Below, in pieces: positions 3,140 to 39,214 of a DNA stretch of 39,214 nt. The stretch is from IMG/VR virus record IMGVR_UViG_3300045988_075215. The stretch is one strand, 5' to 3'. Numbering within the stretch: position 1 is the first letter of the stretch; each line of letters starts with the position of its first letter. Both the position numbers and the translations under genes were made by a program. Origin of the DNA: a virus. The notes beneath the pieces were generated by a model. It was not told the origin of the DNA, did not search any database, and saw nothing but the letters and a program-made list of their open reading frames with translations.

Positions 3140-3338
3140 TATTCAGATTCTCCAACATTGCCACAAGCTCATTTTTTCTTTCAGCCAGTTTCTCTGATTC
3201 TGCAATTTCCTTTGCATACTCTTCCTTTGTGGCTCTGCCCATGGCAATCTTCGTGCCAATGTAATCATTGGCCTTCATAAGCTGATCAACGGCTCTGATC
3301 TCTGCCTCGATCTGCTCTCTTGTCATATTCTCATTCAT
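3129..3338 (-). CDS. 69-aa helical hypothetical protein translationally coupled to the RT
   Basis: Its ATG overlaps the RT stop (ATGA at 3335-3338), with AAAGGAGGA lying inside the RT 3' end. Confidence 0.55.
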   Translation of the reverse strand: MNENMTREQIEAEIRAVDQLMKANDYIGTKIAMGRATKEEYAKEIAESEKLAERKNELVAMLENLNNEE

Positions 3339-4627
3339 GCTGCTATCCTCCTTTCCTCTGAGTATTCAGGTATTTGTGGTACATATACCCATTCTTTTAT
3401 GAATAGCCGGTTGAAAAGAATATCCATCCGCCGGATGGTTTTATATGCGTCTTTCTGCCCGGCGTATCCTCTCCATGATTGATATGCCTCTCTAACCTGG
3501 GCATAGGTCATTGATCCCTCCTCCGTCAGTTTGGCAAATTTCTTCAGCTTTGCTCTTTCCCTTGTGATGGATTCCCGGCATAGCTTTTTCACTACTTTTC
3601 CGGTATCCGTCAGAATAAATCTGGTTTTCAGGAACGTGAAGCCCCTGCTCAGCTTCACAATTTTGGTTTTCTTCTCATTGAGCTGTATGCCTAATTCTGC
3701 ATATTTCTCTCTGAGTACATCCCACACCATTTTCAGATATTCCTTATCCTGGTGAATGATGAGTGAATCATCCATATATCTCTCATACGGCCTGATCCGC
3801 AGCACTTCCTTCACATAATGATCCACCGGATCCGGATATGCCACGGCACATCCCTGGCAGATTTCACTCCCCAGGCCCAGGCCTCTGGCATACTCATCTC
3901 CATAGAGCATTGCTTCCTCTTTTTGTTTCTGCACCTCCATCATCTTCTCATCAGCAAAGGCATCAATGAAGCTCTCTGTGAGTTTGATGATCTTTTCATC
4001 CGTGAATTTCTTCCGGATCATTTCTTTGAGTGGCTCATGTGGTATGCTTGCAAAATAGTTCTTCAGATCTATTTGCAGCACATAGCCCTCAGTACCGTAT
4101 TTCTCATAGTATTCCTGAAGGAATTGAGATACCCGGTTGATTGCGTGGCTTATGCCCATTCCTTGCCTTGATGCCCCATTGTCATATATGAGGCTGTTGC
4201 TTAGAACTGGCATTAAAGCATTCTTTGAGAGGCTCTTTTGCGGCACCCTTTCTGCAAAATGAACACTCTGGATATGCCGGAGCTTCCCTCTTTCCATAAT
4301 GTCAAAAGGTATGAAGCCCTTCCGCACATCCTCTCCATTGATTAGTGCGTTGTGAGTTCTGCACAGATTTTTCCCAAGCTCAGAACCATATCTCTGCACA
4401 CTGGCCTTCCAGTTTACGCCTTTTCTCGCTTCCCTATAGGCTTGATACAAAGAGTTGTAATCTGCCACCCTGGCAAAATCATCATATTCTGAGAGCTTCT
4501 CTCTTCGGTTTTTCTCCCGCTCAGCTTTCCTCCTGAGTTCTCTCTGTGCGTGTCTTTCTTCGCTTGTCATATTGTAATTGTGCCCAGTTCCCCCTTGTAC
4601 GGTTCTGTGTGCTATCCCTAACCGCAT
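3335..4627 (-). CDS. DGR reverse transcriptase
   Basis: RT motifs seen: RGKLRHI, YDNGASRQGMG, QIDLKNYFASI, LGSEICQ (the DGR-type LGxxxSQ position) and YMDD. It lies directly downstream of the TR. A possible in-frame CTG start at 4660 is preceded by GGGAGGTG. Confidence 0.9.
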   Translation of the reverse strand: MRLGIAHRTVQGGTGHNYNMTSEERHAQRELRRKAEREKNRREKLSEYDDFARVADYNSLYQAYREARKGVNWKASVQRYGSELGKNLCRTHNALINGEDVRKGFIPFDIMERGKLRHIQSVHFAERVPQKSLSKNALMPVLSNSLIYDNGASRQGMGISHAINRVSQFLQEYYEKYGTEGYVLQIDLKNYFASIPHEPLKEMIRKKFTDEKIIKLTESFIDAFADEKMMEVQKQKEEAMLYGDEYARGLGLGSEICQGCAVAYPDPVDHYVKEVLRIRPYERYMDDSLIIHQDKEYLKMVWDVLREKYAELGIQLNEKKTKIVKLSRGFTFLKTRFILTDTGKVVKKLCRESITRERAKLKKFAKLTEEGSMTYAQVREAYQSWRGYAGQKDAYKTIRRMDILFNRLFIKEWVYVPQIPEYSEERRIAA

Positions 4628-4848
4628 AATGGTATGGGTATGAAATGCACCTCTGCACAGCCTTCACCTCCCTTCCGATTTTTGCACCATGCAAGCAGCG
4701 TCCACCCATCCATATCAAGCATGATCCCGCTCATGGCACCAGAGCGGAATGAGATAATTTACATTTGCATGAAGGTCATTCACTCCTTCCTCTGTCTGAT
4801 ATTGATTTCTGCTTTTTACGGCGTACTTTGTCGAATCATTATGACAGT
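4628..4848 (-). ncRNA. Spacer between the TR and the RT start, presumed part of the DGR template RNA
   Basis: Assigned by position only. About 220 nt with no convincing ORF, and it contains the hairpin ccgctc-N9-gagcgg. Confidence 0.35.
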
Positions 4849-4972
4849 GAATCAGAGCGGCACCCGGAAGTCATTGGTGCAGTTGTTGTTGTTGGCATTG
4901 CCGTTGTTGTTGACATTGCAGGCATTGGTAGAATTGCCACCATTCACGGACAGAAGCCACCAGTTGGCCCGG
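4849..4972 (-). repeat. DGR template repeat (TR), 124 bp
   Basis: It aligns without gaps to 5493-5616 and 29326-29449. The minus strand reads RANWWLLSVNGGNSTNACNVNNNGNANNNNCTNDFRVPL*, with 14 AAY codons. Confidence 0.92.
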
Positions 4973-5003
4973 AGCGTAATTGTGCAGTGAATAACCTATG
5001 TTT

Positions 5004-5414
5004 TTACTTCTTTCTCTCTATGAGTTTCACTCTGTCCTTCCAGTTCCTCAATTTTTCATCTTCCTTCAGCATCAGGTTTAGCAGAGTATCAAATTTGTTC
5101 CAGTCTACCGGAAGGGTTGTGGCCAGATAATTGATGAGGTTGTATATATCCCGGAGTGTGTCTATTGCTTCCTGGGCTTTTCTCTTCCTCTCCGCAACCT
5201 TTTCCTCCGTGTATGTCCATATTCCATTGGCCATCCTGATCTCGTCATATAATTTCTGGCATAGGGCACACATTGGTTTTGAGAATACATCTCTCCATCC
5301 CTTTGGAACCACATTGGTGTTCCATACAAGCCTTGTGGCCTCTGCTCTTATTTCTTCAGCAAGCTGAAGCACATCTAACTGAGATTTTCCTCTCAGCCTG
5401 GCCAAAACGCTCAT
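5004..5414 (-). CDS. avd: Accessory variability determinant (Avd-like four-helix-bundle protein)
   Basis: 136 aa, basic and all-helical in character. It sits in the canonical position between the target gene and the TR, with a GGGAGGTG RBS. Confidence 0.7.
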   Translation of the reverse strand: MSVLARLRGKSQLDVLQLAEEIRAEATRLVWNTNVVPKGWRDVFSKPMCALCQKLYDEIRMANGIWTYTEEKVAERKRKAQEAIDTLRDIYNLINYLATTLPVDWNKFDTLLNLMLKEDEKLRNWKDRVKLIERKK

Positions 5415-5443: not shown

Positions 5444-5466
5444 CCCGCCACCTGGAAAGTGGCGGG
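5444..5466 (-). promoter_or_regulatory. GC-rich hairpin downstream of VR1 (DGR target-recognition element)
   Basis: Stem cccgccac/gtggcggg (8 bp) with a 7-nt loop, 26 nt beyond the VR1 end. There is no U-tract, so it is not a typical terminator. Confidence 0.7.
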
Positions 5467-5477
5467 ATTGTTCCTGA

Positions 5478-6437
5478 TTATTCCGTGATTCGGAAGCAGA
5501 GCGGCACCCGGAAGTCATAGGTGCAGTTGTTGTAGTCGGCACTGCCGTTGTTGCCGACACGGCAGGCATAGGTAGAAGTGCCACCAGTCACGGACAGAAG
5601 CCCCCAGCTGGCCCGGCTTCCGCCGTCACCGGCCCCTTTGATGCGGCTTCTAAAGCTATTCGCAAATGCCGGATACTGAACCGCCTGGCCTGCACTCCAT
5701 CCCTTTGTGCCCCATACTACAGATCCAAATACTTCATACTCTGAAGGGATCCACAGCTTTCCAAGGTCTGCCCATCCCCATGAGTTTGAATCTGTCAGAG
5801 TTCCGGATCCGGAGTATCTATTTTCCAGAAGGAACCTTTTACTACTAATCACGCTCTGCAATTCTTTAGGCAGCTTTGACACCAAGCCATCCAGAAAGCT
5901 CTTGACTGTTGATTTCAAATAAGGTGCTGCATTTGCAGAGGTTCCGTTGTTATTGTTTTCTGTGAACCATTTCACAGTTTCCGGGTAGCAGTCTTTGGTT
6001 CCCCAGTCAATATGCCATCCAAGCTCCTGATCTGTGGTTCCAGTGTATGTATTGATGCCCAGGATCTCCGGCTTCATAGTGTAGCTTCCCACTGTGATGG
6101 TCATGAAGTCATGCACATGGATTCCATCCAGGTTGTGTGCTGCCAGTCTCGCCTTGATCCATCTCCAAGGGTCAGAGTATTTTGCAATCTCCTCTGCAAA
6201 TCTCACTGTAAGATCTACCCCCTGGTAGTTTTTATCTCCTTCCTCAATGGCAAAATTGCAGTGAGCATTTTCCTCATTGATCTGTTTTGCACCGTACTCA
6301 TCACCCTCCTGGGTGTATGGTGTCTGGTCTGTGTAGCTGAATGTGCCGTCAGAGTTTGTGGCCTGGGAAAATTTGCGATCCGTGGCCAACTCCTCATTGA
6401 TCACATCATCCTTGTAATCTGTTTTTAAGATTGACAT
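5478..6437 (-). CDS. DGR target protein 1: tail fibre/receptor-binding protein with C-terminal variable region
   Basis: 319 aa and the last gene of the tail module. The C-terminus …GGSRASWGLLSVTGGTSTYACRVGNNGSADYNNCTYDFRVPLCFRITE is encoded by VR1. Confidence 0.85.
   Translation of the reverse strand: MSILKTDYKDDVINEELATDRKFSQATNSDGTFSYTDQTPYTQEGDEYGAKQINEENAHCNFAIEEGDKNYQGVDLTVRFAEEIAKYSDPWRWIKARLAAHNLDGIHVHDFMTITVGSYTMKPEILGINTYTGTTDQELGWHIDWGTKDCYPETVKWFTENNNNGTSANAAPYLKSTVKSFLDGLVSKLPKELQSVISSKRFLLENRYSGSGTLTDSNSWGWADLGKLWIPSEYEVFGSVVWGTKGWSAGQAVQYPAFANSFRSRIKGAGDGGSRASWGLLSVTGGTSTYACRVGNNGSADYNNCTYDFRVPLCFRITE
5493..5616 (-). repeat. DGR variable repeat 1 (VR1)
   Basis: 124 bp with 14 mismatches to the TR. 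Thirteen are at TR adenines (plus-strand T) and one is elsewhere (4959). Confidence 0.92.
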
Positions 6438-23680: not shown

Positions 23681-24118
23681 TTAATTTTCCCCGCCATTTT
23701 CTCTCAGATACTTTGACACGGCTTTCTCTGCCGTTGTCCGGTCACAATGGAAGATCTGCCCTATCTTCTCCCAGGTGTATCCATCTATGTATCTGTATTC
23801 CACCATTCTCCGGATCTTGCTCTGTGGTATGGAGTTGATGAATGCTGTGATCCTGGTTTCCAGTTCTGCTGCCTGGTTCCTCCTTTTCTCCAATAGCATT
23901 CTCTTATTCATGATCTGTGCTCTGGTGTTTTTATCCGCCACCACATCAAAACCGGTGATCTTCACTGAGGTTGGCGTGTACGGAAAATCTTTCATTGATG
24001 CCTGCACCTTGTCGGAAACAATCCTGCTGCCTCGGCTGCTCAGTTTGGCTATTTTCGTTTCAATCTCAGCGATCTCTTCCCTCAGATCGCAAAGCTGCTG
24101 CAAATCTTCCTTTGTCAC
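23681..24118 (-). CDS. Putative late-gene transcriptional regulator (sigma-70 region-4-like HTH; ArpU/RinA/DUF1492-like)
   Basis: C-terminal motif IRRMVEYRYIDGYTWEKIGQIFHCDRTTAEKAVSKYL. It lies immediately upstream of the packaging genes. Confidence 0.5.
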   Translation of the reverse strand: MTKEDLQQLCDLREEIAEIETKIAKLSSRGSRIVSDKVQASMKDFPYTPTSVKITGFDVVADKNTRAQIMNKRMLLEKRRNQAAELETRITAFINSIPQSKIRRMVEYRYIDGYTWEKIGQIFHCDRTTAEKAVSKYLRENGGEN

Positions 24119-24880: not shown

Positions 24881-25456
24881 TCAAACTCCTTTTATCTGTG
24901 ATGCAATCATATCTGCCATGTGCGTATAAAGCACATTCGGATATATTTTCACGGCCCTGGAATAAAACTCCCACTCTTTGCTGTCTGTGAAGGATCCCAT
25001 GTGATACCGGATGCACATTTTCTCCTCTTCCGTGAGGTTGATGTGCCCCATCAGCATGATCAGGCTCTTCTCTCCGTGTCCTGGCCATATTCTTTCTTTG
25101 TTCCATTCCGCCTGAGGATTGCCATAGATCTTGCCGCCGTCTATCGTTGCACCAATTACTTCCTCCCGGATCAGGTAATCATCCATTTTGCATACATCAT
25201 GCAGCATTCCTATAATTTGCGGGCTGTTCTTCCTCTGCCACTTCAGCCCTAATTTCTCCGTGAGGTTGATGAGCTCATACGCCACCTGAAGAGAGTGCTC
25301 ATAAAGGGCACCCTCCTCTGATCCATGATGGCTCTTTGATGCCGGAGCCGTGAAATATCCATTTCCTTCAAGCCATTTCAAGAAATCATCATCCGCAGCT
25401 TCCAGGAGAAAATCTCTCAAAATGTCTTTCTTTGTTTCCAGTGTGAGGTTCGCCAT
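24881..25456 (-). CDS. HD-domain phosphohydrolase
   Basis: Motifs SHHG…HSLQV…MLHDVCK (the H…HD pattern). Confidence 0.7.
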   Translation of the reverse strand: MANLTLETKKDILRDFLLEAADDDFLKWLEGNGYFTAPASKSHHGSEEGALYEHSLQVAYELINLTEKLGLKWQRKNSPQIIGMLHDVCKMDDYLIREEVIGATIDGGKIYGNPQAEWNKERIWPGHGEKSLIMLMGHINLTEEEKMCIRYHMGSFTDSKEWEFYSRAVKIYPNVLYTHMADMIASQIKGV

Positions 25457-25839
25457 TATATCACCTTCCCTCCGTGTCTGTATGGTCTGCTCTTGTTAAA
25501 TTCATGTTTTTCCACAACTGCTGCTGCCAGGTCAATTCCATAATGATCACACATATCCATGAGGCGGATCACCACATCCGCAAGTTCCGCCGGTATGCCC
25601 TCCATTTTTCCATCCTGATCTCTGTAGTATGTCTCTGTAGGCTTATGGCCTGCTCTGTACTCTTCCAGAGCCTCTGAGAGCTCACTGTGGGCCAGTGCAA
25701 TCAGCTCTCCAAAGCTTCTCTCCTCTCCATCCCACCATCCATGCTCTCTGGCATTCTTTCCTACCTCTGCCTGAAGGCTTCTCATGCCGTCTATTACTTC
25801 CTGGCGTTCTTCCATCTTTGTCTGAATATCTTTCTCCAT
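25456..25839 (-). CDS. MazG-like nucleotide pyrophosphohydrolase
   Basis: Motifs LIALAHSELSEALEEYR…PAELADVVIRLMDMCDHYGIDL. Confidence 0.75.
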   Translation of the reverse strand: MEKDIQTKMEERQEVIDGMRSLQAEVGKNAREHGWWDGEERSFGELIALAHSELSEALEEYRAGHKPTETYYRDQDGKMEGIPAELADVVIRLMDMCDHYGIDLAAAVVEKHEFNKSRPYRHGGKVI

Positions 25840-27372: not shown

Positions 27373-27958
27373 TTTTCACTCCTTTCTCTTTCAATGCCTG
27401 GATCCAGAACTGCTGCACCTCTTTGGTACAATGTTCCATTGCATCCTTCCAGGTTGGCCACCTCCCATGCTCATCATAGAATTTATACTGATATGCAAGG
27501 CTCTGAAGGTTGTGAGGTTGATCCGGATCATGTTTCACCGCACACATGAGGCAAGTGCCCTCCGGTGTTCTTCCGGCCAGTATTATCCCATGCCTTGCCT
27601 TCAGGAACCCTCCCTCAGGCTTTACAGTTTCCCTTTTTTCAATTTCTTCCAGATCAAACCGCTTGCCCCACGGCTGAAAAACGTGGTCTTTCATCTCTTC
27701 CTCTGTGATCCGGCCATCTTTTCTGTACTGAAGCACCTTGATGGCTTTTTCTGTGTCTCTTCCGCAGCAATCATTCCAGAGTTGATATGCTCTGCTGCCC
27801 TTTAGCCCTGCCTCTGTGAGCATGAGGAGGGCCTCATACCCTCCTTTTGAAAGTAATTCACAGCAAAACTGTATGCAGCCGGGATTGCCTTCTGATATGG
27901 CCACAATTATCTGCTCGGTGCTCTTGCCGCTTCCTCTTCCTCCCATGAAAATCTGCAT
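27362..27958 (-). CDS. Hypothetical protein with an N-terminal Walker-A-like GGRGSGKS
   Basis: A P-loop-like motif at residues 6-13, but no recognisable Walker B or ATPase core. Confidence 0.45.
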   Translation of the reverse strand: MQIFMGGRGSGKSTEQIIVAISEGNPGCIQFCCELLSKGGYEALLMLTEAGLKGSRAYQLWNDCCGRDTEKAIKVLQYRKDGRITEEEMKDHVFQPWGKRFDLEEIEKRETVKPEGGFLKARHGIILAGRTPEGTCLMCAVKHDPDQPHNLQSLAYQYKFYDEHGRWPTWKDAMEHCTKEVQQFWIQALKEKGVKIDG

Positions 27959-27972
27959 TGCTTATCCTCCTA

Positions 27973-28608
27973 TCACTTATAGAAATTGTGGTTTCCCACT
28001 GTTTTTATGTATTCCAGGTTCTTTGAGTGCCAGGTTCCTTCTCCGTTGGATGTTGCCTCAAAATATAGGGCTCCTTCACTCTCATCCCAGTGATCTACCA
28101 TCACCATATAAAGTGCTTTGTAACAATCCGCATCCGGTTCTACATTCCAGTATCTTTCCCCTGGCATAACGGAGCTGAACTGGAAAACTCCGTCTTTTAT
28201 TTCAAATATCACATCCTCAATGGTTCCTGGGAAATCATCATCCCAAACCCTATTGAGAACCGTTCTGATCACCATGGCCTTCCCTTCAGTGCTCTCTCCT
28301 TCCGCCTCTGCCATTGCAATCCTGGCCAGTAAATAGCTTTCATACGCATCCCAGTCCGTTGAGTGCTCTTCTGTTGCCGTTGGCCGTTCTTCCCGGATAA
28401 ATACCACCTGAACCTTCTCCGGCTCCTCTGTGGCCGTCTCAGCGGCTTCAGGGAGCGGTTCTGGCTCATCCTCTTTCTTCACCGCTGTCATGCAGATGCA
28501 GGACACAGAAATAATTATGAGCATGATCCCCAGGAGCTTCATGTTTATCCGTTTTCTTCTCCTTCTTTTCCTTCTGGTTCGTGTCTTATTCTCCATAATC
28601 TGTGCCAA
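27973..28608 (-). CDS. Membrane-anchored SleB/CwlJ-type cell wall hydrolase (Hydrolase_2-like)
   Basis: It has a basic N-terminus and a TM segment (LLGIMLIIISVSCICMTAV). Catalytic-domain motifs seen: LLARIAMAEAEGES…VIRTVLNRV…QFSSV…ALYF. Confidence 0.7.
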   Translation of the reverse strand: MAQIMENKTRTRRKRRRRKRINMKLLGIMLIIISVSCICMTAVKKEDEPEPLPEAAETATEEPEKVQVVFIREERPTATEEHSTDWDAYESYLLARIAMAEAEGESTEGKAMVIRTVLNRVWDDDFPGTIEDVIFEIKDGVFQFSSVMPGERYWNVEPDADCYKALYMVMVDHWDESEGALYFEATSNGEGTWHSKNLEYIKTVGNHNFYK

Positions 28609-28819
28609 TCAGCTCCTCTCTCAGTTCTTCATACCTGGTTTCCAGGTGCCTGAAGCTCTCCTCCTGCCTCTTTATGCAAAGAAGCATACTCACCATGAAG
28701 CACAGTAGCAAAATGATCAATGATACCGCTGCCCTGTTGAAGTTTCTGGCCTTTTTCAGTTCATCCTCCATGCTCAGCTTCTCATTCAGCATTTCAAAAT
28801 ATTCTTTTTCTCCACTCAC
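28586..28819 (-). CDS. Small single-TM protein
   Basis: 77 aa with the hydrophobic segment AAVSLIILLLCFMVSMLLCI. Confidence 0.45.
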   Translation of the reverse strand: MSGEKEYFEMLNEKLSMEDELKKARNFNRAAVSLIILLLCFMVSMLLCIKRQEESFRHLETRYEELREELIGTDYGE

Positions 28820-29232
28820 TTTTTCGCCTCCTCTCCGGTTTTTACCTTCAGCCCTATTTTTTCAAAATAAAATTTTATTTTCCCCTCATGTTCCTCCACC
28901 ATCCCATACCTCACTGCTATGCTGTATGTGCTCACATCTCTTGCAAGCCGCTTAGGTATTCCTGATAACATTTCTCGGAATGTTTCCAGGTCGAAAGTTG
29001 CTTTGTATTTATTACACGATCTGCATGAAGGGAGCATATTCTCCACAGAATCCACTTTCAGCCCAAGTTCATCATCCATATACTCATAATTTTTCAGGCA
29101 GAGCACATGATCTGCATGAAAACCTTTGAATGGTATTTCACAACCGCAGTACGCACACCTCCCGCCGGTTTTTTCGTATACTTCCCGCCGTTCCTTCTGT
29201 GTGAGCTTTTTCCTCATTCTCTCACCCCGCAA
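28816..29232 (-). CDS. HNH endonuclease
   Basis: Motifs GGRCAYCGCEI…HADHV…PSCRSCNKYK. Confidence 0.8.
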   Translation of the reverse strand: MRGERMRKKLTQKERREVYEKTGGRCAYCGCEIPFKGFHADHVLCLKNYEYMDDELGLKVDSVENMLPSCRSCNKYKATFDLETFREMLSGIPKRLARDVSTYSIAVRYGMVEEHEGKIKFYFEKIGLKVKTGEEAKK

Positions 29233-29275
29233 TTCTTATTTTCTAAAAATTCATTAGCGTATCCCTACCAGTTAC

Positions 29276-29299
29276 CCTGCCGCCGGTTACAGCGGCAGG
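29276..29299 (-). promoter_or_regulatory. GC-rich hairpin downstream of VR2 (DGR target-recognition element)
   Basis: Stem cctgccgc/gcggcagg (8 bp) with an 8-nt loop, 26 nt beyond the VR2 end. This is the same spacing as at VR1. Confidence 0.7.
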
Positions 29300-29310
29300 A
29301 TTGTTTTTGA

Positions 29311-29937
29311 TTATCTCTTGATTGAGAAGCAGAGCGGCACCCGGAAGTCATTGGTGCAGTTGTAGTCGTTGGCATAGCCGAAGTAGTTGACAAGGGAGGC
29401 ATCGGTAGAATTGCCACCATACACGGACAGAAGCCACCAGGTGGCCCGGCTTCCTCCGTGTCCTCCCATCTTTATTCTGTTTCTCGGATCCTTGAAGATC
29501 TCTAACTGCTCCCCTTCCTTTGCATCAGAGAACCATTCTTCTCCAAACACCTCATATTCTGAAGGGAGCCACAGCTTCAGCATGAATTTCTCCTCTTCGC
29601 CGTCCACAACCTGGATGCACTCTCTTTCACAGATCACAGCTTTCAGTTCTTCCGGAAGCTGCTGCCATACCTTTTCATTCAAAGCCTTGCAGAGGTCACT
29701 CTTCTTGAAGCCTCCGGTGTTTCTTCCGTTCTCATTCCATGTAAATCTCTCCGCCATGGTGTCACGGCTGATGAAGTCCATTCTGTCCTCCGTGATATGA
29801 GCCACCTCATACACCATCTTTTCTCCGGTGAGGAGCTCATCCTCAATCTGATCTCCTACCTTCAGGCTTCCTGCTGCCACCAGGGCTGCAATGTCCTTCC
29901 ATGTGGTTCCTTCTGTTCTTCTGGTTGTCAAATTCAT
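29311..29937 (-). CDS. DGR target protein 2: stand-alone 208-aa paralogue of the target-1 C-terminal domain
   Basis: It shares LWLPSEYEVFG and …GGSRATWWLLSV…DFRVPLCF with target 1. Its 3' end is VR2. Confidence 0.85.
   Translation of the reverse strand: MNLTTRRTEGTTWKDIAALVAAGSLKVGDQIEDELLTGEKMVYEVAHITEDRMDFISRDTMAERFTWNENGRNTGGFKKSDLCKALNEKVWQQLPEELKAVICERECIQVVDGEEEKFMLKLWLPSEYEVFGEEWFSDAKEGEQLEIFKDPRNRIKMGGHGGSRATWWLLSVYGGNSTDASLVNYFGYANDYNCTNDFRVPLCFSIKR
29326..29449 (-). repeat. DGR variable repeat 2 (VR2)
   Basis: 124 bp with 13 mismatches to the TR. Twelve are at TR adenines and one is elsewhere (4919). Confidence 0.9.
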
Positions 29938-29960
29938 TTTCTTATCCTCCTTCTATGTTC

Positions 29961-30230
29961 TCAGGCGTTCCGGCCGCCTGCTGCCGTCTCAGTGTCTTTG
30001 GCTCCCGCTGCAATAAGGGCCAACTTGATCTGCTGCACCTTCACCGGGCCAATGCCCTTGATCTGGCTGATTGCCTCCATGGCCAGTGCTGTATCAAATG
30101 ATGGGGCTGCTGCCTTCATTCCCATCTCAAAAATACTGTTTATGTATTCCTCCATGGTGTTGTGATCCATCTTGCGGATCTGATTGTATTTATTGCGGTT
30201 TATTTCCACCGCTTTCTTCTTTTTGGCCAT
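29961..30230 (-). CDS. Small protein with a helix-hairpin-helix-like motif
   Basis: Motif ISQIKGIGPVKVQQIKLAL. Confidence 0.4.
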   Translation of the reverse strand: MAKKKKAVEINRNKYNQIRKMDHNTMEEYINSIFEMGMKAAAPSFDTALAMEAISQIKGIGPVKVQQIKLALIAAGAKDTETAAGGRNA

Positions 30231-30241
30231 CCCCTGCCTCC

Positions 30242-31243
30242 TTATCTCTTTTTGCGATCATAATCTTCAAAGTTTCTGATTGTTCGGAATACTCTTTTTG
30301 AGTTCACCCATCTCTGCAAATCAATGCAGATTTGCGGTGCGTTCCATTTTTCATACACCATCACATATGGATCAAACCCCAAATCTCTGAGTGTGTATAT
30401 TCTGTGAAGATCCTGCTCTATTGTGCTGTTGAAATTGATCAGGGTGTATACTGTCAGCCTTCTTCTATCCAAGCCGGTGATCTCCTTGAACATTTTCAAT
30501 TTCGGCACAATCAGATCCTCATCCTCCGGGTTATCCCACGCAAAATGCAGCATCTTCACCTTTAGCTTCTTTATGAGCTCAGTGTTTTTCTCTGTGAGCA
30601 GCCTTGCATCAAGCCCTTGGTTTATATCCACCCACGCCTTAGAATCCACAAGCTGCTGCAATATTTCCAGGTGCTCCGGGCAGGCCAGGAGGTTTGGATC
30701 CATGAGTTTAATCTCTTTTTGTCCTCTCCAAAACTCATCCAAATCTGCCACCTTCCTGCTTTTCTTTCCCTCTTTGCATCCCACTATGCAGAAATGGCAT
30801 CCTCTTGGGCGCCCTCTGCTTGTGAATCCGTATGCAGTATCAGTTATTCCATACAGCGAATAATCAGGGTATATATGCTCTGCTTCATATGGCAAAATGT
30901 CCTGGTAGGTTTTTCCTGCCTCTGTAATCGTCAAAGGTATTCGATCACTTTCTTCCAGTCCAACCTTCTTTATAAGCTCATCCCTCATGCTTCTGAATCG
31001 TTCTTGCAGCTCACCATGAATGAATCCGCTTCCACCATATTGCACTGCATCTGCATTCATTGGATAATCAAAAAACTCCGAAAAAGAGAAAACCCTGCTC
31101 ACATATATCTTTTCCATGTGGCCTGATAAAAGCGGGTAGTACCACTCCACTTCATCTCCTGCTGCCTTGTGATATGCAGAGAGCTTCATCATTGGCAAAT
31201 TGGGGTAGTTGTGGCCATCCACATCAATCAAGCCTACTCTCAT
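30242..31243 (-). CDS. Radical-SAM-superfamily-like protein with an atypical Cys motif
   Basis: It reads TSRGRPRGCHFCIVGC where a canonical enzyme has RGCxxxCxFC. The N-terminal LIDVD…PNLPMMKLSAYHK is reminiscent of phage B12-like/radical-SAM proteins. Confidence 0.45.
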   Translation of the reverse strand: MRVGLIDVDGHNYPNLPMMKLSAYHKAAGDEVEWYYPLLSGHMEKIYVSRVFSFSEFFDYPMNADAVQYGGSGFIHGELQERFRSMRDELIKKVGLEESDRIPLTITEAGKTYQDILPYEAEHIYPDYSLYGITDTAYGFTSRGRPRGCHFCIVGCKEGKKSRKVADLDEFWRGQKEIKLMDPNLLACPEHLEILQQLVDSKAWVDINQGLDARLLTEKNTELIKKLKVKMLHFAWDNPEDEDLIVPKLKMFKEITGLDRRRLTVYTLINFNSTIEQDLHRIYTLRDLGFDPYVMVYEKWNAPQICIDLQRWVNSKRVFRTIRNFEDYDRKKR

Positions 31244-31256
31244 TCCTGCTGCCTCC

Positions 31257-31697
31257 TTACATTCTTGGGCCCCTGAATATCACCACCATGGATGGGAATG
31301 GGGCTCCTGCTGCCGCCTGGCCAAATTTCAAGCGGCCTCTCACAAATCTCACCTCTGCCCGGTGCAGGATGTAATCATGGAAATACTTTGTATCCGTCCG
31401 GGCCGGTATGAGCATAACCACCAGGGTATTCTCCTTGTGGCCTTCCTCATAGCTTTTCTGCACCCAATCACCAATTTCTCTGCCGTATGGAGGATTGCAG
31501 AATACACGGTGCCCCCCCCAATCCTTCAAAAGGCCGTTCTCTTCTTTGGTGAAAAATGTCTCACATTTATGGTTTTTCTCATCAGCACACGGATCCAGAT
31601 CAAAGGCAAATTCCACATTGAGCTCATTGAAGAACTCCTGAGGTGTGGCCCACTGATCTGTTTTGCTGCTATACATCACATCCAAATTGGCCATCAC
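31257..31697 (-). CDS. dam: Phage-type DNA N6-adenine methyltransferase
   Basis: Motifs DQWATPQEFF…FDLDPCA…FCNPPYG…ARTDTKYFH. Confidence 0.85.
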   Translation of the reverse strand: MMANLDVMYSSKTDQWATPQEFFNELNVEFAFDLDPCADEKNHKCETFFTKEENGLLKDWGGHRVFCNPPYGREIGDWVQKSYEEGHKENTLVVMLIPARTDTKYFHDYILHRAEVRFVRGRLKFGQAAAGAPFPSMVVIFRGPRM

Positions 31698-32292: not shown

Positions 32293-32645
32293 TCTTCATC
32301 ACCTTCCAGGTAGTTCTTGCCAAATTCCTGCATCCACAGCTCATGGCTGTATTTCTCCTCAAAGGCTCTCTGAGCCACCTCTTTGAGGTGCTTGTCCACT
32401 TCTTGGTTATCATGTGGAGCTTCCGGGCCGTGTTCGTGGTGCCGTTCTTCACACACATAGCCCCACAGCCCATAGTGCTCCGCCTTTTTTCTGAAACATC
32501 CGAACCGGCCATATATGAAATGGTGTTTATGAAGGCCGGTATGCCTCAACTCTCCATAGTATCCATTCCTCTCAGCCTCTTCCCTGCAAAGGAAGCACTC
32601 ACGGTTCAGAGGATCAGTTCTCTTCTGTATAATGCTTTTTGCCAT
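32289..32645 (-). CDS. Hypothetical His/Cys-rich protein (possibly HNH-like, beta-beta-alpha-metal fold)
   Basis: Motifs CFLC…LHKHH…GLWGYVCEERHHEHG. Confidence 0.3.
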   Translation of the reverse strand: MAKSIIQKRTDPLNRECFLCREEAERNGYYGELRHTGLHKHHFIYGRFGCFRKKAEHYGLWGYVCEERHHEHGPEAPHDNQEVDKHLKEVAQRAFEEKYSHELWMQEFGKNYLEGDEE

Positions 32646-33003
32646 TCATCAGCTCCTCCAATTCTCTCAGTATCTCTTTCCTCTTCTCCCGGCTCATATC
32701 CGTTGCCAGTGTCACCGGCAGGCCCATTTCTTTTGCCTTCAGGATCTCTGCCTTCATTCCCTCTGAGAGGTGGCTGAAGATCCGCAGTTCCCCGCATTCC
32801 TTCAGGAGCTCCATTCCCATCTCCATGCCTGCTGCCCTCTGGCTCTTCACCTCATCATTCAGCACTCCGGCATAGAACAGATGTGGGCAGATCGGAATCT
32901 TCCCCTCTTCAATCACCTTTATGCAATAAAACTTTGCCGCTTCCAGGTTGGCCGCCCGGTCTCCTCTGGTGCCATATTGTGAACACACATACACCTTTTT
33001 CAT
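32614..33003 (-). CDS. DUF4406/nucleoside 2-deoxyribosyltransferase-like protein
   Basis: Motifs MKKVYVCSQY…NLEAAKFYC…GKIPICPHLFY…LNDE…CGELRIF…EGMKAEILKAKEMGLPV. Confidence 0.45.
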   Translation of the reverse strand: MKKVYVCSQYGTRGDRAANLEAAKFYCIKVIEEGKIPICPHLFYAGVLNDEVKSQRAAGMEMGMELLKECGELRIFSHLSEGMKAEILKAKEMGLPVTLATDMSREKRKEILRELEELMNGKKHYTEEN

Positions 33004-33346: not shown

Positions 33347-33783
33347 TTCTTCTCCATCTCCTTCCTGATCTCAATCTGCATCACATTCTGAAATTCATGG
33401 TGCCCGCTGTGAAATGAATATGAATGCTTTCCCAGGGCTTCCAACATCTGCTGCCAGAGCTCCGCATTCTTCACCGGCTTTCCTTTGGCGTTGTGCCAGT
33501 CATTTTTCTGCCACTGTATATGCCAGAAGTTCCCCACCGTGTTCAAAATATGCTCACATTGAGTAAATACCCGGATTGAGCACTCTTTTGTGAGTATCTT
33601 TGCAGCCGCCGTGATGGCCATGAGAGATGCCTGGTTCTCTGTACCATCATCCAGATGGATCATTCCCTGCCTGGTGATGGACTCTCCGGCCCTTTTGTAC
33701 TCCACAAGCCACATGGCAACGCCTTTTCTCCTGGCCGGGCCCTTCCAGGTGGTCTCCACATAGATATTCACATCAAATTTCAT
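33343..33783 (-). CDS. RNase H-like protein with a non-canonical active site
   Basis: By eye it aligns to E. coli RNase HI (LMAI…, GKPVKNAELWQQ). The positions of D10, E48 and D70 read E10, S53 and Q75. Confidence 0.6.
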   Translation of the reverse strand: MKFDVNIYVETTWKGPARRKGVAMWLVEYKRAGESITRQGMIHLDDGTENQASLMAITAAAKILTKECSIRVFTQCEHILNTVGNFWHIQWQKNDWHNAKGKPVKNAELWQQMLEALGKHSYSFHSGHHEFQNVMQIEIRKEMEKK

Positions 33784-34556
33784 CCTGAATCACCTCCCGG
33801 CTCCACTTTCCTCATGATGTAATGCTGATATGGGTATCCAGTCACCGGGTTGATGCCGTTCACAATGGAATCCTTGATGATGTACCATCCTTTTTCCGGC
33901 TTTGGTTCTCTCTGCCATCTGTTTCTGTGGATCTTCTCCCGCTGAGGCTCCGGTACAATCAAATTTCTGCTCCTGGAATATGTGCAACCATCCTGCTCCT
34001 CTTTGGTCTCTTTCTTCACTATGTACTCAGCCAGGTTCTCAAACTCTCCATCCTCATACAGCGGGATGAATGCCTTTGATCCGTATTTCCAGTATTTCTG
34101 CACCATCTTTGTGGTGTTCAGTCCTGGCTCTGATATATCCTCAATGATCAGATGGTGGTGGCAGGCTCCCTGCTTGCCCCTCTCTGTCACATATATGTAT
34201 TTGAATTGCCTCCCGGCTTTCTTATAAGCTCCTCTCATATCTGCAAGGAATTTCTGGATCTGTTTCTTTGCCTCCCGGAAGCTCTCCGGCCTCAGGTCTT
34301 TCTTGTACTTCAGGATCAGGTGCCAATCACCCTCCTTGAAGTTGGCCAGGATCAACCTCTGCACTTTCTTCTCCCGGTTGGTCTTATTCTGCCTCTCTAT
34401 GTCCTCAGGCGTTCTCTTTCTCTTTGGCCCTCTCTTCACCCCCGGTGCTCCATAGTTACCCGGATAGTATTTGGCCACTTCCTTCAGCCACCCAAGGTCA
34501 TATACTCTTTTTATATACAAATTGCATATCACCCCTAACTTTAATATCCTTATCAA
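33780..34556 (-). CDS. HUH-type rolling-circle replication initiator (Rep)
   Basis: It has an HUH motif (GACHHHLII) preceded by FKYIYVTERG, and a candidate catalytic Tyr in LAEYIVKKE. The start is non-ATG: TTG 34556, GTG 34532 or TTG 34520. TTG 34520 is preceded by AGGGGTGA. Confidence 0.6.
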   Translation of the reverse strand: MIRILKLGVICNLYIKRVYDLGWLKEVAKYYPGNYGAPGVKRGPKRKRTPEDIERQNKTNREKKVQRLILANFKEGDWHLILKYKKDLRPESFREAKKQIQKFLADMRGAYKKAGRQFKYIYVTERGKQGACHHHLIIEDISEPGLNTTKMVQKYWKYGSKAFIPLYEDGEFENLAEYIVKKETKEEQDGCTYSRSRNLIVPEPQREKIHRNRWQREPKPEKGWYIIKDSIVNGINPVTGYPYQHYIMRKVEPGGDSG

Positions 34557-37566: not shown

Positions 37567-37587
37567 GGGCATTTTTATGCCCTTTTT
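37567..37587 (+). promoter_or_regulatory. Small hairpin plus T5 immediately upstream of the integrase RBS
   Basis: Sequence gggcat-tttt-atgccc followed by ttttt, then AGGAGG (37588-93). Confidence 0.4.
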
Positions 37588-37600
37588 AGGAGGTTTTGCT

Positions 37601-39187
37601 GTGCATTTTGGAATTTATGGAAGAAAATCATATTTTAAGGACACCTCAGACAGTACACAGATGCAGTTTTCTGAAGGTGATAAATATATAGCTGAACACT
37701 TTTCCCCGGATGAGATTGAATCCGTCACATACTATGAGGATGATGGTTGGATCCGTTCTGATATGGATAGGCCGGATCTGAACCGCCTGAAGGATGATAT
37801 ACTTGCAGGACTCATCAATGTGGTGGTTATTTATAAAATAGACCGTCTGTGCTGTGATATGGCCGACTTTGTACCGTTCTATGCCTTCCTGAAGGATCAT
37901 GGTGTTAAATTCATCACCATCAAAGATGGCATTGATACCACCACGCCTATTGGAGAGGCCATGATGTACCTGGCTGTTATCTTCTCCGGCCTGGAAGTGC
38001 AAACCGACTCCCTCCGGATCACCGATAACATGAACCACCTGGCAGCGGAGGGCTTCTGGTGTGGAGGCAAGCCGCCCATTGGTTATGATATTCAGGAGAT
38101 CTCCCTGGGTGCAAAATCTCATAAAACCCTTGTTTTCAATGAGGATGAAATCCGATATAAAAACACTCTCATTGATATTTTCCTGGAAAACCATTTCTCC
38201 CTTCAGGGTATGGAGACCTACTGCAAAAACCATGGGATCACCTCCCTCAAAGGAAGTTTCCTCTCCACCACTCAGCTCTATAGTATGTTTGGCTCTCCCA
38301 TGTGCGTGGCCAACACTCCTGCTATGTATGATTATTTTGCGGATAAAGGATGCCAGATGAGTGAGGGAAGCCCAAGGGATGCCTGGGATGGAAAGCATGG
38401 GATCATTGTGTATGGCCGCACTATGGAGAAGAAAGTGAGCGGCAAAAAGAAACACATCCAGGCTCCTCCTGAGAACTGGCGTGTGAGTATCGGATACCAT
38501 GAGCCCTATATGACTGATGAGCGTTTCTTTGCCATTCAGGCTCAGTTTGGGCACAACGTATTCAGCAAGCAGGCCAAGTATGATCTCCCGCTGCTCAAAG
38601 GTTCCCTCCGGTGCAAATGTGGCCGCCTTATGTCCATGAGCCGGAAAAAGAAAGCTGATGGCTCTATTTCCACCTGGTACTATTGTCCCCGCCGGATGCG
38701 GAGCGGCGTTGAGGCTTGTGATATGAGCCAAGTCAAATCAGATCTCCTGGATAATAGGGTGATCAGTATCTTCCAGGAGATTGAACATGATCCTGCTGCC
38801 CTGAAAAAGTATCTGAAAGAAGAAAAGAAACAGCCGCAGGATAACGCCGCCGCTCTCCGGGCCGCCATGGAGAAATGCCAGGCCAAAATAGGCAAGCTCA
38901 CCGCCACCCTGAGCCTCAACTCTGAATCTGCTGCTGCAAAGTATATTGTGAATGAAATTGAGAAATTGGATATTGAGTATAATTCACTCAGGAAAAGAAT
39001 GCTGAGTGCAAATGCCGTTGATCGGAAGAATGCTCTCAACATGAAGAATGCTATGGAAAAAAGAGAGGAGATCATCCGCCTCCTCAATGATTTTGACAAC
39101 TTCACACCTAATGAGCGGAATGAGATTGCCAAGGATGTGCTGAAGGAATGTGTGTGGGATGGGAATACGCTTTTTCTTACGCTTTAA
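37601..39187 (+). CDS. Large serine recombinase (integrase)
   Basis: GTG start 7 nt after AGGAGG. The resolvase-type N-terminus reads HFGIYGRKS…VVIYKIDRL…ITIKDGIDTTTPIGEAM. A recombinase domain, a Cys-rich zinc ribbon (CKCG…CPRR) and a coiled coil follow. The track start at 37577 lacks an RBS. Confidence 0.85.
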   Translation: MHFGIYGRKSYFKDTSDSTQMQFSEGDKYIAEHFSPDEIESVTYYEDDGWIRSDMDRPDLNRLKDDILAGLINVVVIYKIDRLCCDMADFVPFYAFLKDHGVKFITIKDGIDTTTPIGEAMMYLAVIFSGLEVQTDSLRITDNMNHLAAEGFWCGGKPPIGYDIQEISLGAKSHKTLVFNEDEIRYKNTLIDIFLENHFSLQGMETYCKNHGITSLKGSFLSTTQLYSMFGSPMCVANTPAMYDYFADKGCQMSEGSPRDAWDGKHGIIVYGRTMEKKVSGKKKHIQAPPENWRVSIGYHEPYMTDERFFAIQAQFGHNVFSKQAKYDLPLLKGSLRCKCGRLMSMSRKKKADGSISTWYYCPRRMRSGVEACDMSQVKSDLLDNRVISIFQEIEHDPAALKKYLKEEKKQPQDNAAALRAAMEKCQAKIGKLTATLSLNSESAAAKYIVNEIEKLDIEYNSLRKRMLSANAVDRKNALNMKNAMEKREEIIRLLNDFDNFTPNERNEIAKDVLKECVWDGNTLFLTL

Positions 39188-39214
39188 TTTTCCCTTTTTT
39201 ATTTTGATACCCTC
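39116..39214 (+). repeat. Terminal overlap, copy 2 (identical to 1-99)
   Basis: Read directly. Confidence 0.95.

Follow-up and report, generated by a model that had tools for sequence, protein, structure and literature searches.

Genomic setting of the second target gene

The window, by which we mean the whole 39,214 nt stretch of viral DNA that was analysed (IMG/VR record IMGVR_UViG_3300045988_075215), belongs to a siphovirus-type, SPP1-like gut phage of Lachnospiraceae. It contains a DGR cassette adjoining a tail-fibre target gene (T1), and a short, remote gene (T2) that very probably encodes a second target. The features relevant to these genes are:

3335..4627, minus strand: DGR reverse transcriptase (RT; Pfam RVT_1, E 7.7e-15; PHROG 1423, E 3.9e-82)
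4849..4972, minus strand: TR (template repeat), 124 nt, with 32 adenines, mostly in AAC/AAT codons
5004..5414, minus strand: Avd-like accessory protein, 136 aa, between T1 and TR, with no Pfam hit
5444..5466, minus strand: 9-bp GC hairpin, 26 nt downstream of VR1 (DNA fold z = -3.9)
5478..6437, minus strand: T1, a 319-aa putative tail-fibre/receptor-binding protein (RBP), the last gene of the tail module, with a stalk and a DUF6273 head
5493..5616, minus strand: VR1, 124 nt, within T1
23681..24118, minus strand: putative late-gene regulator (PHROG 36 'transcriptional regulator', E 1.3e-17), just upstream of TerS
27973..28608, minus strand: membrane-anchored SleB-type cell-wall hydrolase (Pfam Hydrolase_2, E 1.5e-19), with a TM segment
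28816-29232: HNH endonuclease, neighbour of T2
29276..29299, minus strand: hairpin with a 10-bp GC-rich stem and a 4-nt loop, 26 nt downstream of VR2; putative DGR target-recognition stem-loop
29311..29937, minus strand: T2, 208 aa with an ATG start, a stand-alone DUF6273 protein, putatively C-type-lectin-like; probable second DGR variable protein
29326..29349, minus strand: GC-rich 3' end of VR2 (GACTTCCGGGTGCCGCTCTGCTTC), invariant and IMH-like in the TR/VR1/VR2 alignment
29326..29449, minus strand: VR2, 124 nt, T2 codons 163-204
29945..29953, minus strand: strong Shine-Dalgarno GAAGGAGGA, 8 nt before the ATG of T2, found from the sequence
29961-30230: 89-aa HhH-like ORF, neighbour of T2

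As the original prediction had it, T2 lies between the HNH and HhH genes, and on a wider scale between replication genes and SSB, in a replication/early module devoted to DNA metabolism (Rep initiator, RNase H, Dam methyltransferase, radical SAM, MazG, HD phosphohydrolase and SSB). In the direction of transcription it is upstream of the putative late-gene regulator, which is related by BLASTP to Sigma70_r4-like ORFs that follow the T2 homologue in a relative (L007). The SleB-type hydrolase is the third ORF downstream of T2, after the HNH gene and a 77-aa TM ORF. A sigma-70 promoter scan of 27.5-31.5 kb found no sites where 4.8 were expected, and there was no sign of T2 forming a separate transcription unit or being a moron. 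No match to positions 27900-31300 was found by megablast among INPHARED phages.

T2 is a head without a stalk

T2 scores 71.3 bits against Pfam PF19789 (DUF6273), for which the curated gathering threshold is 23.5, with residues 58-207 matching profile positions 8-171 of 172; T1 scores 25.6 bits. No other domain was detected in T2, the 208 aa of which form a single globular domain without Ig domains by both Pfam and AF2 (pLDDT 78.7, pTM 0.82). The best structural match found by Foldseek was PDB 9qa6 (probability 1.00, TM 0.64 over the query), Mtd being absent among the top 50 PDB hits, and a profile search of PDB sequences with one of our alignments (A2) returned nothing at E <= 1. Neither a signal peptide nor a TM segment is apparent in T2 by a crude hydropathy test, in agreement with what had been predicted: the maximum Kyte-Doolittle mean over 19 residues is 0.64, compared with 2.64 in the neighbouring membrane-anchored hydrolase, and none of 106 representatives of the small family has a hydrophobic N-terminus by hydropathy.

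T1 follows a 1077-aa tape measure and ORFs of 123, 749 and 235 aa. Its AF2 model has a low-confidence N-terminal stalk (residues 1-69, with pLDDT < 50 at 1-18 and 40-68) and a head in which pLDDT exceeds 90 (70-319). By BLASTP, residues 52-206 of T2 match 142-317 of T1 (38% identity, E 9e-27), and a MAFFT alignment together with the two AF2 models takes the correspondence back to about residue 13 of T2 and 88 of T1. The two proteins have in common the motifs KLW[LI]PSEYEVFG, GGSRA.W.LLSV and DFRVPLCF, much as originally described. T2 begins about 12 residues ahead of the head, with no N-terminal extension and no beta-prism or beta-sandwich attachment domains. Judged from the models, T2 is the globular head of T1 (residues ~75-319) minus a stalk of ~70-85 residues. 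It had been called a stand-alone paralogue of only the C-terminal half of T1, without the fibre's N-terminal part; the paralogy and the missing stalk stand, whereas the match is in fact to the entire globular head.

VR2 is a diversified copy of the template

A three-copy repeat family joins positions 4814-5007, 5458-5651 and 29291-29484, and its alignment places VR2 at exactly the coordinates first proposed. VR2 is 89.5% identical to TR; 12 of the 13 mismatches fall at TR adenines (binomial P = 8.6e-7), as do 13 of the 14 in VR1 (P = 2.4e-7), bearing out the claim that VR2 is a copy of TR and T2 a genuine second target. Near the 3' end, both VRs have a C where TR has an A (GCTTC rather than GATTC). 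The hairpin downstream of VR2 has a DNA fold z of -4.0, with none of 200 shuffles folding as well, and no equivalent was found downstream of TR in the same scan. A T-run follows this hairpin on the opposite strand only; since there is none on the coding strand, the structure is not a classic terminator.

These elements can be compared with phage BPP-1, in which Mtd has a C-type-lectin fold and a C-terminal VR of AAC-codon design, with an IMH and hairpin, and homing depends on RT and Avd. T2 is likewise a variable protein, putatively of the lectin type, with a C-terminal VR, AAC codons, an IMH-like end and a hairpin, and by analogy with the BPP-1 model the conserved VR2 3' end may act as an IMH. 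Unlike T2, Mtd has N-terminal beta-prism and beta-sandwich domains, forms a trimer on fibre tips and is encoded beside its cassette. On its architecture T2 does not fit an Mtd-type tail-fibre-tip RBP: it has no N-terminal attachment domains and no PDB sequence match.

Eighty-eight natural variants of T2 were found, each 208 aa long with the ORF intact. The hypervariable sites are the 14 AAC/AAT-derived codons of VR2, which have 2.0-3.4 bits and 6-14 amino acids per site, while no other position exceeds 1.15 bits. The dN/dS ratio is at least 5.7 in the VR, compared with 0.17-0.24 in the remainder of the gene. Among 15 cluster members, VR1 too is hypervariable at these codons. This confinement of variation to the TR AAC/AAT codons, with purifying selection elsewhere, implies that VR2 is intact and actively diversified, rather than a relic. 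In the window, T2 has undergone a private change, C181S, at a cysteine invariant in 87 relatives, and hence this particular allele may be impaired.

That T2 might be a decayed or non-functional target, or that the ORF is spurious and the repeat fortuitous, is therefore very improbable: C181S is the one observation in its favour, and it is refuted by the intact ORF in at least 88 variants, the low dN/dS outside the VR and hypervariability at adenine codons only, with the adenine bias (P ~9e-7), the strong ribosome binding site, the conserved cis hairpin and the core status of the counterpart in FP_Toutatis, discussed below, also against it. The original prediction had allowed for decay should VR2 prove invariant among related genomes; it is hypervariable in nature.

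Relationship to described targets

T2 had been thought to be without precedent as a target in an early operon, a view that does not survive comparison with published phages. Along its full length T2 is homologous to orf43 of Roseburia phage Shimadzu (39% identity over residues 13-207, E 3e-44; 208 and 209 aa respectively), the VR2 of which has been shown by read analysis to diversify in mice as well as in vitro (Cornuault et al., bioRxiv 10.1101/575076, later ISME J). In both phages the small target is paired with a tail-fibre VR1 target adjoining an Avd-TR-RT cassette; the RTs are 54% identical (E 1e-146), and the window's Avd-like protein aligns along its whole length with the annotated Avd of Shimadzu (28% identity, E 2e-14). 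The Shimadzu VR1 and VR2 end in ...CTGCTTC, like those of the window, and its VR2 similarly lies at the C-terminus with a GC hairpin downstream. Like T2, orf43 is in the replication module, between a DNA methyltransferase and an Erf recombinase; the immediate neighbours differ, being Erf/SSB in Shimadzu and the HNH and HhH ORFs here. Shimadzu is also a myovirus with another backbone, and the diversification of its VR2 is experimental, whereas that of the window's VR2 is inferred from the 88 natural variants. With full-length homology, a single domain, a C-terminal VR and an early/replication gene away from the cassette, T2 fits the class represented by orf43, and is very probably a genuine, active second DGR target of this type.

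Less similar counterparts occur in Faecalibacterium phages. FP_Toutatis has a small DUF6273 target 17.5 kb from its TR that belongs to the core genes, occurring in 98.8% of genomes (bioRxiv 10.1101/2024.10.15.618418), and small remote DUF6273 targets have been published for Lelie and CP11 (PMC11792537); non-adjacent DGR targets within prophages had been noted in general terms by Wu et al. 2018 (PMC5758913). The targets of these phages (Toutatis gp24, Lelie, CP11 and Brigit gp06) are, like T2, stand-alone DUF6273 proteins of ~203-215 aa encoded far from the TR, and those of Toutatis and Brigit share its early-region location. However, they are very divergent from T2 (17% identity in a MAFFT alignment, A3), their VR lies ~100 nt ahead of the 3' end of the gene, and the other DGR target of Toutatis and of Brigit is a Hoc-like tentaclin instead of a tail fibre. 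T2 itself was rejected as a tentaclin (Baykov et al. 2023), as it has no Ig domains and consists of DUF6273 alone.

The proteins nd4_tgt2 and nd12_tgt2 (Baykov et al. 2023, PMC10743442) resemble T2 in having one small C-lec/DUF6273 domain whose C-terminal VR forms a beta-hairpin, and in each being the second target of a two-target phage DGR. By their published description they are within the DGR cassette, whereas T2 is remote, and they are larger (234 and 294 aa) with alpha-helical flanks, including a DUF3310-like motif in nd12. PDB 9qa6, the one DUF6273 fold to have been solved, is the N-terminal domain of a Thomasclavelia ramosa IgA peptidase (PMC12402451); unlike T2, it belongs to a secreted protein of 137 kDa and several domains that carries a putative sortase-anchoring motif, and is not a DGR target.

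The small form recurs in early regions

Searching IMG/VR with T2 as a single protein recovered only two close loci, and in a homologue search with the diverse alignment A3 the best 120 matches were all close relatives. No match was found on plasmids by tblastn, and the small family seems confined to phages and prophages.

In at least 11 distinct genomic contexts the ~203-221-aa, head-only form is encoded in the early/replication region, and in none of those examined does it belong to a late operon. Only contexts with enough flanking sequence were considered, a gene being placed in the early region when upstream of the terminase and/or late regulator, or beside replication genes. The contexts are the window, Shimadzu, Toutatis gp24 (upstream of the annotated antiterminator Q), Brigit gp06 (the first ORF past the regulatory genes), Dulem virus 34, and our loci L004, L005, L007, L026/L027, L032, L033 and L036. 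The small genes of Brigit, Toutatis and Dulem each match their own TR, and small remote targets co-occur with a related RT although 14-24 kb separate the two loci. Homologues that are more distant and extended at the N-terminus (289-311 aa) adjoin Avd-RT or sit in tail modules.

A cell-wall hydrolase is found near the small gene in six of the 11 contexts, and a DNA methyltransferase within the three genes upstream, also in six. Neither is taken as evidence of function, because the background rate of such proximity is not established.

Possible roles of T2

If the BPP-1 mechanism applies, TR RNA would be reverse-transcribed by RT-Avd with adenine-specific misincorporation, and the cDNA would replace VR2 in trans, at a distance of 24 kb (or 15 kb in the opposite direction, the genome being circular), guided by the IMH-like end and the hairpin. 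Going by gene position and protein architecture, T2 would be expressed earlier than the structural genes, as a cytoplasmic protein in soluble form that does not enter the tail in the way T1 does, and may act as a free, hypervariable binder of a ligand other than that of the fibre. Taken as a whole, the best explanation is that T2 is an intact, actively diversified second target of the only DGR in the phage, to which we assign a probability of roughly 0.8. The soluble role off the virion, suggested by the early-region position of the gene and the missing stalk, we would put at about even odds; the conservation of that position makes such a role plausible.

We favour a soluble binder off the virion over the possibility, tentative though closest to it, that T2 is an accessory receptor-binding or decoration protein of the virion encoded outside the structural module. 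Its head might then dock through an N-terminal beta-subdomain on the tail, baseplate, capsid or primary target, giving the particle a second diversifiable specificity, for instance for a secondary receptor or mucus glycans. The ~200-aa T2 module is the distal tip of bona fide fibres, such as one with a Phage_tail_fib N-terminus (P0169), and its BFVD matches include a tail-collar fibre and an RBP; as the module forms fibre tips, a virion role would be natural for the fold. The phage DGR targets that have been characterised are all binders displayed on the virion (Mtd, tentaclin/Hoc-like), and the small in-cassette targets of nd4 and nd12 have been read as Mtd-like receptor binders (PMC10743442). 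Residues 13-60 of T2, well folded and conserved according to the alignments and AF2, could be the docking surface. Against this, all 11 contexts examined place the gene in the early/replication module, with the extended homologues being those found in tail modules or near Avd-RT. The same full-length small protein is common to siphoviruses and myoviruses with unrelated tail modules, a distribution that speaks against docking at a virion site peculiar to one lineage. Furthermore, when Shimadzu bloomed in vivo, VR1 alleles were selected and VR2 alleles were not (10.1101/575076). A protein made early can, however, last until assembly, which counts against the off-virion part of the preferred explanation.

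One form of the off-virion reading, put forward in the original prediction with defence or surface-biogenesis factors as conceivable ligands, would make T2 an intracellular binder in phage-host conflict, serving counter-defence or host takeover, with the diversified surface tracking variable host proteins or cytoplasmic glycan precursors. The early position and lack of a secretion signal are consistent with this, as are the surrounding anti-restriction and nucleotide-pool genes (methyltransferases upstream in 6/11 contexts; radical SAM, MazG, HD and NDT), and cytoplasmic DGR-diversified C-type-lectin sensors have been proposed in bacteria (PMC10907252). [quoted passage not shown] We consider this role unlikely for T2. 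Its generalisation is also improbable, if marginally less so: that the ~203-221-aa stand-alone DUF6273 proteins form a conserved class of early, non-virion, DGR-diversified soluble binders in gut Firmicutes phages, acting within the cell in counter-defence, host takeover or binding of cytoplasmic glycan precursors and not on the particle, with the DGR cassette and the unlinked small gene travelling together across unrelated phage backbones.

More doubtful still is that T2 is a receptor-masking or decoy lectin, a free copy of the receptor-binding head that builds up in the cell and is released at lysis to coat receptors on debris or neighbouring cells, thereby limiting futile re-adsorption or superinfection. 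Llp of phage T5 provides a functional analogue. T2 does have the scaffold and TR of the fibre head while lacking the stalk and being presumably early and soluble, and a membrane-anchored cell-wall hydrolase recurs nearby. However, VR1 and VR2 of the same genome, whose resemblance would suggest a shared ligand, showed no clear correlation in a low-power comparison of four genome pairs, agreeing on average at 3.25 of 14 sites within genomes and 2.67 between them. No VR1/VR2 similarity was seen in nd4 or nd12 either (Baykov et al., PMC10743442), the primary target in Toutatis and Brigit is a Hoc-like protein rather than a fibre, and T2 has no export signal.

Implications for phage DGRs

Phage DGRs are understood almost wholly as a means of changing receptor specificity on the virion, and the role of second targets is acknowledged to be an open question (PMC10743442; PMC11792537). 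T2 is a well-supported addition to the already published class of small, remote targets. What is new is that the head-only, ~203-221-aa form lies in the early/replication module in every context examined, in siphoviruses and myoviruses alike, and upstream of the late regulators where these are identifiable, a regularity apparently not stated in the prior literature. Together with the co-occurrence of a related RT, this turns an off-virion function into a concrete, testable hypothesis, for which phage Shimadzu in Roseburia intestinalis L1-82 offers a cultivable system. Should T2 prove to be on the virion, it would be a second receptor-binding protein of the ordinary kind, though with its gene in an unusual place; if the intracellular reading were true, these would be the first phage DGR targets with an intracellular role.

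The genome and its DGR

The window is a complete phage genome in a circular assembly of approximately 39,115 bp, positions 1-99 being an exact 99-nt direct repeat of 39116-39214. Nearly all genes lie on the minus strand; the gene for a large serine integrase, which runs the other way (37577-39187 (+)), indicates that the phage is temperate. A repeat family is found in three copies (4814-5007, 5458-5651 and 29291-29484) with an aligned core of 124 nt, the third of which coincides exactly with the original prediction of VR2.

Components of the DGR in the window
3335-4627 (-), reverse transcriptase (RT), 430 aa, matching Pfam RVT_1 and PHROG 1423
4849-4972, template repeat (TR), between the RT and Avd-like ORFs, 32 adenines in 124 nt
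5004-5414, Avd-like ORF, 136 aa, 28% identity to the Avd of Roseburia phage Shimadzu
5493-5616, VR1, at the 3' end of the first target, T1 (ORF 5478-6437, 319 aa)
29326-29449, VR2, at the 3' end of the second target, T2 (ORF 29311-29937 (-), 208 aa)

The RT has 54% identity to the DGR RT of Shimadzu, and its true start is probably Met20, judging from the alignment, as the listed ORF begins 19 codons before the methionine matching the start of the Shimadzu protein (MTSEER...). Since the genome is circular, VR2 and the TR are separated by 24 kb in one direction and by around 15 kb in the other.

Mismatches between TR and VR2 fall at TR adenines in 12 of 13 cases (P 8.6e-7), as do 13 of the 14 between TR and VR1 (P 2.4e-7). 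Both VRs share an identical GC-rich 3' segment (...GACTTCCGGGTGCCGCTCTGCTTC). Four nt from the 3' end of the repeat, an adenine in the TR (4852) corresponds to a cytosine in VR1 (5496) and VR2 (29329), giving GATTC and GCTTC respectively; in the target frame this is TGA in the TR and TGC in the VRs, the latter encoding an invariant cysteine (Cys203 in T2, Cys314 in T1). This difference likely belongs to the IMH/IMH* distinction, rather than to mutagenesis. Past the repeat, the flanks of the two VRs align with one another and are both unlike that of the TR. A GC hairpin of 9-10 bp with a 4-5-nt loop lies 26 nt downstream of each VR (z = -3.9 and -4.0; none of 200 shuffles folds as well), and none was found in the TR flank. 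VR2 of Shimadzu is similar: it also terminates in ...CTGCTTC and is followed by a GC hairpin at an equal offset. In its cis elements, VR2 of the window has the make-up of a homing site.

Diversification and selection

Searching with the T2 protein identified 215 homologues; 87 cluster representatives among them are exactly 208 aa long and have 86-95% identity. When these 87 were combined with T2 itself (n=88), column entropies of 2.0-3.4 bits, with 6-14 residue types, were found only at codons 166, 173, 176, 179, 182, 184-186, 188, 190-193 and 196, which correspond exactly to the AAC and AAT codons of the TR; all other positions had at most 1.15 bits. Comparison with three nucleotide relatives (L002, L003 and L014) gave dN/dS values of 0.17-0.24 outside VR2, and of 5.7 inside it for two of the three, the third being undefined through having zero synonymous differences. 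The same pattern of variability is evident in VR1 among 15 members of the T1 cluster. Hence, on these sequence comparisons, VR2 is actively diversified and the T2 gene functional, both T1 and T2 being live targets; the decayed state envisaged for an invariant VR2 beside a variable VR1 is not what is seen, as both vary.

Each VR in the window also has a private, non-adenine change at an invariant scaffold residue: W279G in T1 (5602 region), where 14/14 relatives have tryptophan, and C181S in T2 (29396 region), where 87/87 have cysteine. Errors by the RT at non-adenine positions, ordinary mutation or mistakes in the consensus could each account for these changes, which may impair both target proteins in this particular genome.

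Genomic setting of T2

Gene order around T2, along the direction of transcription
33780-34556, Rep initiator
RNase H
Nucleoside deoxyribosyltransferase
31257-31697, Dam methyltransferase
30242-31243, radical SAM protein, PHROG 9298
29961-30230 (-), 89-aa HhH-like ORF, PHROG 19490, function unknown
29311-29937 (-), T2
HNH endonuclease
77-aa TM ORF
27973-28608 (-), SleB-type hydrolase, membrane-anchored
MazG
HD phosphohydrolase
SSB
23681-24118, PHROG-36 regulator, putatively late
TerS, TerL and portal

This order places T2 within a DNA-metabolism block, upstream of the putative late regulator, and agrees with its predicted location between HNH and HhH ORFs. No sigma-70-like promoter was found between 27.5 and 31.5 kb, nor is there a coding-strand T-run after the VR2 hairpin, hence T2 looks to belong to the operon around it. 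Its ribosome-binding site (GAAGGAGGA), 8 nt ahead of the ATG, is strong. The stop codon of the HhH-like ORF is 23 nt before this ATG, and the ORF is directly upstream of T2 in all prophages of the window's lineage (L004, L014-L022), and absent in other lineages. Genes for DNA modification and nucleotide-pool functions surround T2 (30242-31697, 32614-33003 and 24881-25839 (-)), encoding the radical SAM protein, Dam, a nucleoside 2-deoxyribosyltransferase, a MazG-like pyrophosphatase and the HD phosphohydrolase; this cluster may represent an anti-restriction or DNA-modification island. A syntenic prophage in an Acetatifactor sp. MAG (L014), with a 90% identical copy of T2, suggests that the host is a member of the Lachnospiraceae, in genomes of which the remaining relatives are also found.

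The T2 protein

T2 matches Pfam DUF6273 across residues 58-207 (71.3 bits, cut-off 23.5), as does T1, a putative tail fibre, across residues 160-314. BLASTP aligns residues 52-206 of T2 with 142-317 of T1 (38% identity, E 9e-27), and MAFFT extends this correspondence to around residue 13 of T2 and 88 of T1. The AF2 model of T2 is a single globular domain (pLDDT 78.7, pTM 0.82); that of T1 has a high-confidence head (70-319) following 69 low-confidence residues, comprising a short beta-hairpin and a long helix. T2 therefore corresponds to the entire T1 head minus its stalk: the two are paralogues, as proposed, with the similarity covering the whole head rather than only the C-terminal half, and T2 does lack a fibre-like N-terminal region. 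Likewise, there is no signal peptide or hydrophobic segment (KD maximum 0.64), and none of 106 small family representatives has a hydrophobic N-terminus.

Of solved structures, the one most similar to T2 is the N-terminal DUF6273 domain of an IgA peptidase from T. ramosa (9qa6, TM 0.64), with C-type lectins ranking below it as weak matches. Among predicted viral structures, those that match belong to DUF6273 proteins from MAGs of gut phages, of which some are small and some annotated as tail-collar fibres or receptor-binding proteins; in one family member (P0169, 435 aa), a T2-type module is joined to an N-terminal Phage_tail_fib domain. A subfamily of homologues of 270-294 aa from outside the window (P0126, P0129, P0131, P0134 and P0140) shares a conserved N-terminal extension of around 65-90 aa (M..LKIR.KGMELEV.G...DFYDF...), which has no Pfam match.

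A recurrent class of small targets

Amongst annotated phages, tblastn matched T2 to orf43 of Shimadzu (209 aa; 39% identity across T2 residues 13-207, E 3e-44), which contains a third copy of the Shimadzu TR and lies between a DNA methyltransferase and an Erf recombinase. Cornuault et al. assigned this VR2 to a gene of unknown function and found both VRs to be modified in reads; during a bloom in mice, VR1 alleles were selected and VR2 alleles were not (10.1101/575076). Toutatisvirus has a DUF6273 gene 17,480 nt from its TR in 98.8% of genomes (10.1101/2024.10.15.618418), Lelie and CP11 have 'large and small' DUF6273 targets (PMC11792537), nd4 and nd12 have single-domain targets inside the cassette (PMC10743442), and Wu et al. 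described many non-adjacent targets within prophages (PMC5758913). The original view that such a target lacks a characterised precedent is therefore contradicted, although none of these five studies establishes a function.

The stand-alone small form (approximately 203-221 aa) was found in the early/replication region in every context with sufficient flanking sequence.

Contexts of the small form
Shimadzu
Window's lineage, several Lachnospiraceae prophages
GpA-terminase lineage, after a radical SAM gene and before two Sigma70_r4-like ORFs
FP_Toutatis gp24, with replication initiator and annotated antiterminator Q downstream
FP_Brigit gp06 (L010 3948-4559), the first ORF past the regulatory genes, before exonuclease, RecT and replisome organiser
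Dulem virus 34, directly 3' of an adenine methyltransferase
Faecalicatena and R. hominis prophages
HK97-type phage, directly 3' of the Rep gene
Two further contigs, adjoining Rep and RNase H

The small genes of Brigit, Toutatis and Dulem each match their own TR; for gp06 of FP_Brigit, annotated as hypothetical, comparison with L012 (5412-5491 and 7477-7572) shows matches to the phage TR (89%, 80 nt) and to the Hoc-like target's VR, and the gene thus seems to be this phage's second DGR target. Distant homologues with N-terminal extensions (at most 33% identity, 289-311 aa; L029-L031) are instead found beside Avd-RT or at the end of the tail module. Head-only targets encoded in the early region hence form a separate class that recurs in siphoviruses and myoviruses with unrelated tail modules.

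In six of 11 contexts, an early-region cell-wall hydrolase is located a few genes from the small target (window 27973-28608 (-); L001 30548-31264; L004 11154-11840; L005 11948-12484; L009 7828-8358; L011 6181-7098). These are of SleB/Hydrolase_2 (with an N-terminal TM anchor in the window), 3D domain and Slt70-like types, and in Shimadzu and Brigit, where lysis genes are annotated, they are separate from the lysis module.

Possible functions of T2

The data show that T2 has a lectin-like head and is a live target of the DGR. In several lineages the gene precedes late regulators, which suggests expression before the late genes; the missing secretion signal implies that T2 would be soluble, and the missing stalk that it would not be incorporated by the route T1 takes. 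We consider there to be about an even chance (roughly 0.5) that T2 acts away from the virion. A virion accessory role, with which the fibre-tip fold is consistent, seems less likely, because the small protein is maintained at full length across phages with unrelated virion architectures, and VR2 was not selected during the Shimadzu bloom. Action off the virion is thus favoured, and such roles for DUF6273 proteins are already under discussion: a 2026 preprint (10.64898/2026.05.08.723808) reports that Mushu tentaclin, another DGR-diversified member, is expressed during lysogeny and detected in the secretome, without particles. A more speculative reading, an intracellular binder countering host defences, would fit the neighbouring methyltransferases and nucleotide-pool enzymes. 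Receptor masking or decoy activity, whereby T1 and T2 share a ligand, gains no support from comparing VR1 and VR2 within genomes, albeit at low power (n=4), an outcome matching that of Baykov et al. for nd4 and nd12 (PMC10743442).

The original observation of a second, stalkless target in the early block is consequently upheld, and its interpretation in part, the claim to be without precedent having failed. Remote small DGR targets are already known from published phages, to which T2 adds a further case; the chief value of these data is that conserved placement in the early module makes the function of second DGR targets a testable question.
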